Source: a phage. Taken from it: a DNA stretch of 64,000 bases. The position numbers and the translations under genes are program-made. Shown in pieces: positions 40,347-41,174 of this stretch. The notes beneath the pieces were generated by a model. That model searched no databases, was not told where the DNA came from, and saw only the letters and a program-made list of their open reading frames with translations. The DNA lies in sequence record PZ452596.1, one strand, 5' to 3'. Position 1 is the first letter of the stretch. The number at the start of each line of letters is the position of its first letter.

Positions 40347-40422
40347 TGGTCGAGGCAGTAGGGATCGAACCTACGACCCAGGACTTAGAAGGTCCTTGCT
40401 CTTCCTTCTGAGCTATGCCTCG
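40347..40422 (-). tRNA. tRNA-Arg (anticodon UCU), CCA encoded
   Basis: Hand-folded cloverleaf: 7-bp acceptor, T-loop UUCGAUC, anticodon loop CUUCUAA. Confidence 0.8.
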
Positions 40423-40426
40423 GATT

Positions 40427-40501
40427 TGGCGGACGTGATAGGATTCGAACCTATAACCAATCGCTTAACAGGCGATCGCTCTGCCATTGAGCTACACATC
40501 C
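40427..40501 (-). tRNA. tRNA-Asn (anticodon GUU), CCA encoded
   Basis: Hand-folded cloverleaf; anticodon loop CUGUUAA; T-loop UUCGAAU. Confidence 0.75.
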
Positions 40502-40505
40502 AAAT

Positions 40506-40592
40506 TGGTGGGGAGTGATGGAGTCGAACCACCCGAGTCGCAATGACAATGGATTTACAGTCCACACCGCTACCTCTACGGGATAACTCCCC
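40506..40592 (-). tRNA. tRNA-Tyr (anticodon GUA), long variable arm, CCA encoded
   Basis: Hand-folded; anticodon loop CUGUAAA; 15-nt variable arm; T-loop UUCGACU. Confidence 0.75.
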
Positions 40593-40601
40593 TAATTAAT
40601 T

Positions 40602-40676
40602 TGGTGGCCCTGGGTGGAATTGAACCACCATCTGGCGATTATGAGTCGCTTGCTTGAACCTTCCAGCTACAGGGCC
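40602..40676 (-). tRNA. tRNA with CAU anticodon (Ile2/AUA-reading type as in T4, or elongator Met)
   Basis: Hand-folded; anticodon loop CUCAUAA; anticodon stem lacks initiator-type GGG/CCC pairs. Confidence 0.7.
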
Positions 40677-40677
40677 T

Positions 40678-40753
40678 TGGTGCTGATTGACGGAATCGAA
40701 CCGCCGACCTTCTCATTACAAGTGAGTTGCTCTACCTACTGAGCTAAATCAGC
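40678..40753 (-). tRNA. tRNA-Thr (anticodon UGU), CCA encoded
   Basis: Hand-folded; anticodon loop CUUGUAA. Confidence 0.8.
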
Positions 40754-40758
40754 AAAAC

Positions 40759-40848
40759 TGGCGGAGGCGATAGGATTTGAACCTATGAGTCGCCGGAGCG
40801 ACTGCCGGTTTTCAAGACCGGTGCATTAAACCACTCTGCCACGCCTCC
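40759..40848 (-). tRNA. tRNA-Ser (anticodon UGA), long variable arm, CCA encoded
   Basis: Hand-folded; anticodon loop CUUGAAA; 18-nt variable arm. Confidence 0.8.
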
Positions 40849-40850
40849 AG

Positions 40851-40924
40851 TCTCCATACAAGGATTTGAACCTTGGACCTCCTGATCCCAAATCAGGCGC
40901 TCTACCAAACTGAGCTACACGGAG
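40851..40924 (-). tRNA. tRNA-Pro (anticodon UGG), CCA not encoded
   Basis: Hand-folded; anticodon loop UUUGGGA. Confidence 0.75.
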
Positions 40925-40934
40925 TAAATTAAAT

Positions 40935-41008
40935 TGGAGCGGATAATGAGAATCGAACTCACATCATCAGATTGGAAGTCTGAGGTAATGCCATTATACG
41001 ATATCCGC
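40935..41008 (-). tRNA. tRNA-Gly (anticodon UCC), CCA encoded
   Basis: Hand-folded; anticodon loop CUUCCAA. Confidence 0.8.
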
Positions 41009-41013
41009 AAATT

Positions 41014-41100
41014 TGGTGCGAGAAGTGGGACTCGAACCCACAAGGAAATCATTCCGCAGCATTTTAAGTGCTGTGCCTTTACCAATTTGACCATTCTCGC
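41014..41100 (-). tRNA. tRNA-Leu (anticodon UAA), long variable arm, CCA encoded
   Basis: Hand-folded; anticodon loop CUUAAAA. Confidence 0.8.
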
Positions 41101-41101
41101 G

Positions 41102-41174
41102 CTGGGAATAAAGGACTCGAACCTTTGCATCTAGCAGTCAAAGTGCTATGCCTTACCAACTTGGCTAATTCCCA
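41102..41174 (-). tRNA. tRNA-Gln (anticodon UUG), CCA not encoded
   Basis: Hand-folded; anticodon loop CUUUGAC. Confidence 0.75.

Follow-up and report, generated by a model that had tools for sequence, protein, structure and literature searches.

Why does a T4-like phage carry tRNA-Tyr and tRNA-Asn genes that T4 itself lacks? The question is raised by a tight cluster of tRNA genes in the window analysed here, the whole 64-kb stretch of phage DNA. A first-pass annotation, made from the letters alone, had folded ten minus-strand tRNAs by hand, regarded Tyr and Asn as additions to the T4 set, and proposed that they counter tRNA-cleaving host defences. ARAGORN returned the same ten genes with the same anticodons, all on the minus strand and all inside 40347-41174, and found no tRNA gene elsewhere in the 64-kb window. 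With the Rfam tRNA covariance model (RF00005), all ten scored above the gathering score of 29 bits, including the two genes in question (Tyr, 30.2 bits; Asn, 74 bits); the nine other than Tyr scored 59-74 bits, with E values of 1e-11 to 1e-15. The locus, read in the direction of transcription, comprises the following features.

41101..41174, minus strand: tRNA-Gln (UUG), without encoded CCA; ARAGORN; Rfam 66 bits; 99% identical to T4
41014..41100, minus strand: tRNA-Leu (UAA), class II; ARAGORN, Rfam; 100% identical to T4, T2 and T6
40935..41008, minus strand: tRNA-Gly (UCC); ARAGORN, Rfam; 99% identical to T4
40850..40924, minus strand: tRNA-Pro (UGG), without encoded CCA; ARAGORN, Rfam; 99% identical to T4
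40759..40848, minus strand: tRNA-Ser (UGA), class II, CCA encoded (not in the T4 copy); ARAGORN, Rfam
40678..40753, minus strand: tRNA-Thr (UGU); ARAGORN, Rfam; 96% identical to T4
40602..40676, minus strand: CAU-anticodon tRNA; ARAGORN, Rfam; allele common to T2, only 63% identical to T4 tRNA-Ile
40506..40592, minus strand: tRNA-Tyr (GUA), class II, phage-type, weak D stem; ARAGORN; Rfam 30.2 bits
40427..40501, minus strand: tRNA-Asn (GUU), discriminator G73; ARAGORN; Rfam 74 bits; 100% identical to T2
40425..40451, minus strand: preferred 27-bp SegB site (GGTTCGAATCCTATCACGTCCGCCAAA), the 3' part of tRNA-Asn plus 2 nt; exact match
40347..40422, minus strand: tRNA-Arg (UCU), T2-type allele; ARAGORN, Rfam; only 67% identical to T4/T6 tRNA-Arg
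40225..40345, minus strand: rnaD (species II stable RNA), homologous to T4 rnaD; RB27 annotation mapped to the window
40081..40219, minus strand: rnaC (species I stable RNA), with a tRNA-like T arm; RB27 annotation and sequence reading
40007..40030, minus strand: intrinsic terminator of the tRNA-rnaD-rnaC unit; 10-bp stem with 7 G-C pairs, then a T run

CCA is encoded in eight of the ten tRNAs, as the hand folds had indicated, Gln and Pro being the exceptions. The spacers, first given as 1-5 nt, range from 0 to 10 nt by ARAGORN coordinates (CAU-Tyr, 9; Pro-Gly, 10).

The array has been annotated before, as the tRNA operon of the T4-like phage RB27, and there is nothing new in it. Over the 1.4 kb used as query, identity to Enterobacteria phage RB27 (KM607000 / NC_025448) is 100%, and record KM607000 lists the ten tRNAs together with rnaD and rnaC. 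The same twelve genes are annotated in the deposited RB3 cluster (AJ884578), and the 174-bp segment with Tyr and Asn is 100% identical to RB3. The RB27 and RB3 records hold the same sequence as this array and differ from our reading only in the name of the CAU tRNA ('Met'). T2L, RB1 and RB3 were described as carrying the same cluster in 2008 (Brok-Volchanskaya et al., PMC2330249), and the annotators of RB51 (FJ839693, a 2009-era accession) had already noted the Tyr and Asn tRNAs. From a comparison of the RB27 and T4 annotations, the array lies between e.8 and trna.2-trna.4/ipI, with a tRNA order shared with T4. Two flanking ORFs without a T4 counterpart, RB27_136 and RB27_137, had no Pfam match, and the PHROG families that they matched are all of unknown function.

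The low score of tRNA-Tyr made it necessary to consider a false positive. When the cloverleaf was fitted to nine homologues, 90.7% of cells paired, as against 42-57% with slid partners, and compensatory double changes occurred in 9 pairs. The anticodon, variable and T helices were 100% paired and the D stem only 58%; the weakness of this stem accounts for the score of 30.2 bits. The identity elements that matter are the GUA anticodon, A73 and a long variable arm in tRNA-Tyr, and the GUU anticodon and G73 in tRNA-Asn; all are present in RB27. Together with the covariation, the expression of the near-identical T6 gene, for which northern blot and tRNA-fragment data have been published (PMC13096335), led us to reject a false positive. 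RB27 tRNA-Tyr, set between spacers of 4 and 9 nt, differs by 1 nt from that of T2 (99% identical) and by 2 nt from that of T6 (85/87 positions, 98% identical). T5/BF23 tRNA-Tyr has exactly the variable arm (GUCAUUGCGAC) and T arm seen in RB27. In both molecules the 3' half, which begins at the anticodon loop and includes both arms, is almost the same, whereas the 5' halves differ, with compensatory changes.

Whether these two genes were gained by RB27 or lost by T4 can be judged from the organization of the locus in relatives. T4 has eight tRNAs, lacking Tyr and Asn, in both its RefSeq record and an ARAGORN run at the same settings; on this point the first-pass annotation was right. The T4 operon resembles that of RB27 in position, strand and order, and rnaD, rnaC and the terminator are found in both. 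However, T4 has other CAU and Arg alleles (63% and 67% identical), a tRNA-Ser without encoded CCA and, between the CAU and Arg tRNAs, where RB27 has Tyr and Asn, the 666-bp GIY-YIG homing endonuclease gene segB. T4 lacks the two tRNAs because segB occupies that segment. T4 is similar to RB27 in composition and grows without tRNA-Tyr and tRNA-Asn.

The tRNA-Asn gene of RB27 coincides with the preferred SegB site (40425..40451), which has one exact match in the window, with 0 expected by chance. To reconstruct the site, we combined the published consensus with five listed nucleotides and with the 100% identity between the tRNA-Asn genes of RB27 and T2 (MH751506, standing in for T2L); the RB27 sequence fits the consensus GGTTCRANTCC...CCAR and has the discriminating G6, A16, G18, A26 and A27 (PMC2330249). 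SegB cleavage and segB-dependent conversion in mixed infection have been shown for T2L, and in T4 x T2L crosses segB was inherited at 99.6% while the T2L tRNA markers were excluded (PMC2330249). In the RB27 record no ORF separates the array tRNAs, and a tblastn search of the 64-kb window with T4 SegB as query gave nothing significant (best E 0.067). Judged from the intact site, RB27 carries the allele without the endonuclease, and T4 represents the derived, minority state at this locus. The state with Tyr and Asn, present in about 400 records, is ~3 times commoner than full-length segB in sequenced phages. The description of Tyr and Asn as 'added' to the T4 set thus had the direction wrong, and with T4, the textbook reference, as baseline, hundreds of relatives will seem to carry 'extra' tRNAs.

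The array is also a mosaic: from Gln to Thr the genes are 96-100% identical to T4, while CAU, Tyr, Asn and Arg match T2 at 99-100% (CAU and Arg being only 63-67% identical to the T4 alleles). In each of the relatives an inserted ORF is found where a tRNA is missing (segB in T4 and T6, a segB-like gene in RB51, trna.1 in T2). The segB or segB-like ORFs of T4, T6 and RB51 replace different tRNAs, and in T2 another ORF stands in place of tRNA-Thr. In T6, segB adjoins tRNA-Tyr, and Asn, Ser and Pro are absent. Such a hot spot of segB, segB-like and other ORFs, together with the 99.6% inheritance of segB in T4 x T2L crosses and the dispensability of the region in T4 (PMC2330249), could mean that Tyr and Asn are near-neutral passengers whose presence is set by SegB-type homing traffic and not by selection. 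We consider this very improbable. RB27-type tRNA-Asn is at least 99% identical in 317 records, and Tyr and Asn occur together in the ~400 records mentioned above; the intact cloverleaves and identity elements of both genes argue for purifying selection. In addition, phenotypes have been published for tRNA-Tyr (PMC13096335).

What this selection might act on is suggested in part by codon demand. Relative to the host baseline, a single 50-kb E. coli sample, and with ORFs called mechanically, Asn is used 1.48-fold and Tyr 1.47-fold, making them the second and third most over-represented amino acids, and the A-ending cognate codons of the other eight tRNAs are used 1.3- to 6.4-fold. The cognate codons of all ten tRNAs are more frequent in late (plus-strand) than in early ORFs, the late set consisting of 13 ORFs only. 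Asn and Tyr reach 72.1 and 49.7 per 1000 in late ORFs, and Lys, which has no phage tRNA, goes from 88.8 per 1000 early to 50.8 late. Codon-usage compensation, which the first-pass annotation had named as the alternative to defence, is thereby supported (about 1.5-fold for Asn and Tyr, highest in late ORFs) and is compatible with a defence role. Eight of the tRNAs would serve A-ending codons that the AT-rich phage favours over its host. Tyr-GUA and Asn-GUU, as the sole acceptors of their amino acids, would fill the pools in which demand most exceeds that of the host, especially for late structural genes.

Supply may even be the whole explanation, the two tRNAs only meeting a demand created by AT-rich composition and host shut-off, with no part in defence. 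The over-representation of Asn and Tyr, higher still in late genes, fits such a reading, as do anticodon loops of the host type, without loop mutations of the nuclease-evading kind (PMC10264068). We nevertheless think it rather unlikely, because T4 thrives without both tRNAs despite the same composition, and because the presence or dosage of tRNA-Tyr matters under Septu in sister phages (PMC13096335). Furthermore, the 3' half of the phage-type tRNA-Tyr is 84-95% identical across Tequatrovirus, Vequintavirinae and Demerecviridae, which are unrelated phage families, and this conservation argues for selection on that particular molecule. Since T4 thrives without Tyr and Asn tRNAs, and in laboratory hosts can do without its tRNA region (PMC2330249), any benefit is expected to be conditional.

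Host defence may be such a condition. The defence-evasion role of T-even tRNA-Tyr is already known, having been published in 2026 (PMC13096335). Septu EcB88 cuts host tRNA-Tyr at C48/A49, and the dosage of T6 tRNA-Tyr rescues infection; under this system T2 (with Tyr and Asn) is resistant, T6 intermediate and T4 (no Tyr) sensitive. Deletion of the tRNA-rich region makes T6 more Septu-sensitive, overexpression of tRNA-Tyr rescues infection, and T4 cannot escape. T6 tRNA-Tyr is itself cleaved at C48, so that its effect there comes from dosage, not from resistance; under Septu pressure its gene is amplified in tandem through SegB (all PMC13096335). T5 tRNA-Tyr neutralises Retron-Eco7 (Azam et al. 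2024, PMC11555353) and has been called resistant to it (Chihara et al. 2026, PMC13096335). The RB27 molecule is equivalent in sequence to these rescue-active tRNAs (98% identical to T6; variable and T arms identical to T5) and keeps GUCA at the C48 cleavage site, as in T6. We infer that RB27 tRNA-Tyr likewise buffers the phage against such defences. The reasoning from sequence alone had thus arrived at a hypothesis confirmed experimentally in sister phages, and its Tyr part stands (published for T5 and T6, with RB27 98-99% identical to T6 and T2); for its Asn part the evidence is indirect and mixed. The rationale first offered, that both tRNAs belong to a GUN-anticodon class cleaved by anticodon nucleases, is not borne out by the documented systems: in host tRNA-Tyr the cut made by PtuAB of Septu and Retron-Eco7 falls in the variable arm, and in tRNA-Asn AriB cleaves the anticodon stem (between positions 40 and 41).

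Neither a dedicated strong promoter next to tRNA-Tyr, as in T5, nor an adjacent segB for amplification, as in T6, was found in RB27. With no segB in the 64-kb window, amplification of the T6 type is probably unavailable to RB27, at least from the array locus, and a single copy of tRNA-Tyr may protect it only in part, T6 being intermediate. We regard it as quite probable that the RB27 operon is the uninterrupted, endonuclease-free form, that Tyr and Asn top up supply and also buffer defences, and that T4 lost both to segB. The same top-up that serves translation would then sustain the phage against a host defence that destroys the tRNA pool.

A stronger proposal is that both tRNAs are dedicated to anti-defence, Tyr being directed at PtuAB and Asn at PARIS AriB or a nuclease like it, and are kept as nuclease-resistant variants. 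Escape by mutation of the anticodon loop, proposed for nuclease-evading phage tRNAs (PMC10264068), was rejected: comparison of phage and host molecules, as suggested in the first-pass annotation, gave identical loops (CUGUAAA in tRNA-Tyr, CUGUUAA in tRNA-Asn), the E. coli Tyr and Asn sequences being verified against 5,426 genomes. Differences from the host lie elsewhere. The variable-arm loop of RB27 tRNA-Tyr is 2 nt longer than that of the host and identical to the loop of T5 tRNA-Tyr, described as resistant to Retron-Eco7 (Chihara et al.), but the T6 molecule with the same variable arm is cut by Septu EcB88. In tRNA-Asn, positions 36-41 of the anticodon stem region read UAAGCG in RB27, UAAUCC in the host and UAAGUU in T5. 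AriB cuts host tRNA-Asn(GUU) between positions 40 and 41, beside U36-A-A-U39, and substitution of U39 in tRNA-Lys abolishes cleavage (PMC12409363). T5 tRNA-Asn helps its phage to escape PARIS (Belukhina et al. 2025). The RB27 molecule (G39, G41) shares G39 with this protective T5 tRNA, in place of the host U39, and the two sequences are otherwise unrelated; being one of four bases, G39 is weak evidence.

Moreover, a second T4-like tRNA-Asn allele (JB75, SHBML-50-1, JS98) reads UAAUCA, the optimal AriB motif. A non-U39 base was thus not upheld as a general AriB-escape signature, phage tRNA-Asn genes showing no consistent pattern (PEi20, not parsed by the anticodon-loop pattern, was left out of this allele comparison). 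PARIS escape requires a resistant tRNA-Lys, and T5 tRNA-Lys alone rescues T4, without Asn (PMC12409363). Among the ~24 tRNAs of T5 is the Lys variant on which escape from PARIS depends, and T5 also has its strong promoter for tRNA-Tyr, whereas RB27 has neither; no tRNA-Lys was found by ARAGORN in the 64-kb window, and the RB27 record lists t001-t010 only. For these reasons we judge it unlikely that Tyr and Asn are dedicated, nuclease-resistant variants. It is similarly doubtful that the tRNA-Asn of RB27 and T2, with its G39 and G41, is by itself a nuclease-resistant anti-defence tRNA, directed at an Asn-cleaving effector of AriB type or of another kind, which SegB homing from phages of the T4 type would erase, usually along with Tyr. 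If it were, immune evasion would be traded off against the spread of a selfish endonuclease, which would help to explain why T4 is Septu-sensitive and T2-type phages are not. The coincidence of the tRNA-Asn gene with the preferred SegB site raises the question of whether homing costs the recipient an immune-evasion gene.

The expression of the two tRNAs is presumably tied to that of the whole array. No convincing site for a dedicated promoter was found before Tyr or before the array (10 promoter-like matches, compared with 12.1 expected from shuffled sequence), and rnaD lies in one transcription unit with the ten tRNAs. The ten elongator tRNAs, rnaD and rnaC would share a single precursor transcript that starts at upstream promoters and ends at the hairpin at 40030-40007; the T4 transcript ends after the species I RNA, and the position of the RB27 terminator agrees with this (PMC2330249). 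By analogy with T4, this precursor would be processed by host enzymes (RNase P and others), and the CCA of Gln and Pro would be supplied by the host CCA-adding enzyme.

The identity of the CAU-anticodon tRNA differs between records, those of RB51 and T4 naming it Ile and those of RB27 and RB3 Met. All 12 E. coli matches listed for it in a sampled ranking are annotated as tRNA-Ile, 11 of them with 76-82% identity over the full length, and its sequence shows C4-G69 and C5-G68. On these grounds an elongator tRNA-Met was rejected, and the gene most likely encodes tRNA-Ile2, lysidine-modified and reading AUA.

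Based on record identity, gene annotation and published description, the ten-tRNA array is the annotated tRNA operon of Enterobacteria phage RB27. The 1.4 kb around it are 100% identical to RB27 (KM607000 / NC_025448), where all ten tRNAs, and rnaD and rnaC after them, are already annotated; the same ten are in AJ884578, deposited under the title 'Bacteriophage RB3 tRNA gene cluster'; the tRNA loci of T2L, RB1 and RB3, with the genes missing from T4, were described by Brok-Volchanskaya et al. 2008 (PMC2330249); and in the RB51 record tRNA-Tyr and tRNA-Asn carry the remark 'conserved in RB14'. 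The array was therefore already known. The 2008 work accounted for its difference from T4 by SegB homing, and an anti-defence function of T-even tRNA-Tyr appeared in print in 2026; the one point left beyond published work is the function of tRNA-Asn, a tRNA whose gene is at the same time the preferred SegB target.

In the 64-kb window, ARAGORN calls ten tRNA genes and no more, all within this array and in the 5' to 3' order Gln-UUG, Leu-UAA, Gly-UCC, Pro-UGG, Ser-UGA, Thr-UGU, CAU tRNA, Tyr-GUA, Asn-GUU and Arg-UCU. The Rfam tRNA covariance model, independent of ARAGORN, places the same ten above its gathering score, Tyr and Asn included, in agreement with the hand folding of the first-pass annotation. 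Its count of eight genes with an encoded CCA also holds (the exceptions are Gln and Pro); its spacers of 1-5 nt do not, the measured range being 0-10 nt.

Features of the tRNA region and of segB in related phages
40007-40030 and 39472-39495, minus strand: near-identical pair of intrinsic terminators (AGCCCCAGCCGAAAGGTTGGGGCT then a T run; AGCCCTAGCCGAAAGGTTGGGGCT then a T run)
39503-39964, minus strand: RB27_136, ORF of 153 aa, PHROG 2280 of unknown function
40347-41174, minus strand: ten-tRNA array
40425-40451, minus strand: preferred SegB site, within the gene for tRNA-Asn
40506-40592, minus strand: tRNA-Tyr
40602-40676, minus strand: CAU tRNA
40759-40848, minus strand: tRNA-Ser, ending …CCTCCGCCAG
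41261-41776, minus strand: RB27_137, 171 aa, PHROG 2290 of unknown function
segB or segB-like ORF: 1281-1889 in L013 (RB51), 793-1458 in L004 (T6), 3254-3919 in L002 (T4)

T4 has eight tRNAs, as the first-pass annotation stated (T4 RefSeq record; ARAGORN, same settings), and between its CAU tRNA and tRNA-Arg lies segB, a 666-bp GIY-YIG homing endonuclease gene that occupies exactly the place of Tyr and Asn in RB27. An RB27/T4 alignment and a per-gene identity table reveal the RB27 array as a mosaic. Identity to T4 is 96-100% for Gln, Leu, Gly, Pro, Ser and Thr; for CAU, Tyr, Asn and Arg the close match is T2 (99-100%), with CAU and Arg alleles unlike those of T4 (63% and 67% identity). T-even phages carry two alleles, diverged to this extent, of both the CAU tRNA and tRNA-Arg-UCU. 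The preferred SegB site (consensus GGTTCRANTCC...CCAR, discriminating nucleotides G6, A16, G18, A26 and A27; PMC2330249) occurs exactly once in the window, and no SegB homologue is encoded within these 64 kb. In T4 x T2L crosses, 99.6% of progeny inherit segB and T2L tRNA markers are excluded (PMC2330249). Given the intact site, the lack of segB in the window and this inheritance, RB27 is the endonuclease-free recipient allele. Further relatives agree with this: segB replaces Asn in T6, a truncated segB-like ORF replaces Pro in RB51 and the ORF trna.1 replaces Thr in T2; RB27 has all the tRNAs of these sets combined, ten in number and uninterrupted by any ORF. Among the records of the phage collection, 396 cover the Tyr+Asn segment to at least 80%, about 352 carry an RB27-type Asn at least 95% identical, and about 126 a full-length segB. 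T4 is the minority, derived state at the tRNA locus. The idea that RB27 'adds to the canonical T4 set' thus likely reverses the history, since segB stands in the Tyr+Asn place and Tyr+Asn is the commoner state.

In RB51, T6 and T4, segB or its relative differs in its place within the tRNA cluster but in each case sits at a tRNA gene's 3' end, and RB51 has an intact tRNA-Asn alongside its truncated ORF. The 3' CCA of tRNA-Ser is encoded in RB27 but not in T4 (L002 4119-4205; …CCTCCGTAA); this CCAG moves the point at which SegB cuts the Ser gene (PMC2330249). Outside the array, the two terminators bracket RB27_136, which has no counterpart between e.8 and rnaC in T4; this ORF, without a Pfam match, looks together with its terminator like an inserted cassette with terminator duplication. 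RB27_137, also without a Pfam match, lies between tRNA-Gln and trna.2, where T2 has an ORF (annotated RB32ORF134c) and T4 none.

Nine of the ten tRNAs score 59-74 bits with Rfam and tRNA-Tyr only 30.2 bits (gathering score 29). Because this score is marginal, tRNA-Tyr was aligned to its homologues in T2, T6, an rV5-like phage, Cronobacter phage CR3, a Klebsiella Jiaodavirus, two T5-like phages and E. coli, and its cloverleaf pairs were counted: 90.7% of cells pair, against 42-57% with the 3' partners slid, and nine pairs have both-sided changes. Pairing is complete (100%) in the anticodon, variable and T helices; the D stem, the sole weak helix (58%), accounts for the low score. RB27 tRNA-Tyr differs from that of T2 at one position and from that of T6 at two; it shares its variable arm (GUCAUUGCGAC) and T arm unchanged with T5 tRNA-Tyr, and its variable-arm loop is 2 nt longer than the host's. 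Across the window and loci L006 and L009-L012, the 3' half (variable and T arm) is almost invariant in the unrelated Tequatrovirus, Vequintavirinae and T5-like Demerecviridae, and the 5' half varies with compensatory changes. Such a pattern suggests one 'phage-type' tRNA-Tyr that may have spread horizontally or be under strong selection.

That phage tRNA-Tyr can counter defence, as the first-pass annotation proposed, is demonstrated in close relatives. Retron-Eco7, which depletes host tRNA-Tyr through its PtuAB effectors, is neutralised by T5-family tRNA-Tyr (Azam et al. 2024, PMC11555353). In the variable arm of E. coli tRNA-Tyr, Septu EcB88 cuts at C48/A49 (Chihara et al. 2026, PMC13096335); T2 is resistant, T6 intermediate and T4, which has no Tyr gene, sensitive; T6 is rescued by overexpression of its tRNA-Tyr or by SegB-driven amplification, and is more sensitive without its tRNA-rich region (PMC13096335). 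As T6 tRNA-Tyr is itself cut at C48 (PMC13096335), Septu is countered by dosage replenishment and not by resistance. RB27 tRNA-Tyr has the same GUCA as T6 at this site, and neither a segB for its amplification (in the window, this locus included) nor a dedicated promoter adjoining it was found; how far it would protect RB27 we can only infer. The proposed rationale of a shared GUN anticodon does not match the documented systems: Tyr is cut in the variable arm, and the RB27 Tyr and Asn anticodon loops are identical to the host's (host sequences verified in 5,426 E. coli genomes; median copies 3 for Tyr, 4 for Asn).

For tRNA-Asn, the evidence is indirect and mixed and concerns PARIS, whose nuclease AriB targets host Lys(UUU), Thr(UGU) and, less efficiently, Asn(GUU), with the cut falling between 40 and 41, beside U36-A-A-U39; tRNA-Lys is no longer cleaved once U39 is substituted, and T5 tRNA-Asn contributes to rescue (Belukhina et al. 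2025, PMC12409363). Positions 36-41 read UAAGCG in RB27 and UAAUCC in the host, and G39 recurs in the otherwise unrelated T5 tRNA-Asn, as would fit an AriB escape variant. A defence role of this kind is possible but unsupported: the second T4-like Asn allele (JB75, SHBML-50-1, JS98) reads UAAUCA, the optimal AriB motif, and escape requires a tRNA-Lys, which alone from T5 rescues T4 (PMC12409363) and which RB27 lacks (window ARAGORN; RB27 record). This second allele (L016, L017 and L018 for JB75, JS98 and SHBML-50-1) matches the preferred SegB site at 23/27 positions only; judged from sequence, it might resist SegB but be open to AriB, the reverse of the RB27 allele.

Codon-usage compensation, the alternative named at the outset, was checked in small samples of mechanically called ORFs: 68 long non-overlapping window ORFs (16,643 codons) and 39 ORFs from 50 kb of E. 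coli K-12 (14,394 codons). Asn (1.48-fold) and Tyr (1.47-fold) rank second and third in over-representation among amino acids, exceeded only by Lys (1.87-fold), and the other eight tRNAs read A-ending codons that are 1.3- to 6.4-fold enriched. With plus-strand ORFs taken as late morphogenesis genes (n=13) and minus-strand ORFs as early/middle (n=55), the cognate codons of all ten tRNA sets are commoner in late genes (per 1000: Asn 72.1 vs 57.6; Tyr 49.7 vs 43.2), whereas Lys, without a phage tRNA, falls from 88.8 early/middle to 50.8 late. Within the limits of these samples, demand therefore accounts for the tRNA set, including the missing Lys tRNA.

The CAU tRNA, named tRNA-Met in the RB27, RB3, T2 and T6 records, occupies the T4 tRNA-Ile position. 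All 12 E. coli matches listed in a sampled ranking are annotated tRNA-Ile, 11 of them 76-82% identical over the full length, and the closest host relatives in this ranking are tRNA-Ile2; the tRNA-Met name is thus probably wrong. The gene has C4-G69 and C5-G68, which are acceptor-stem determinants for the lysidine synthetase TilS. AUA is enriched 3-fold in the phage, and it is most likely this codon that the CAU tRNA reads.
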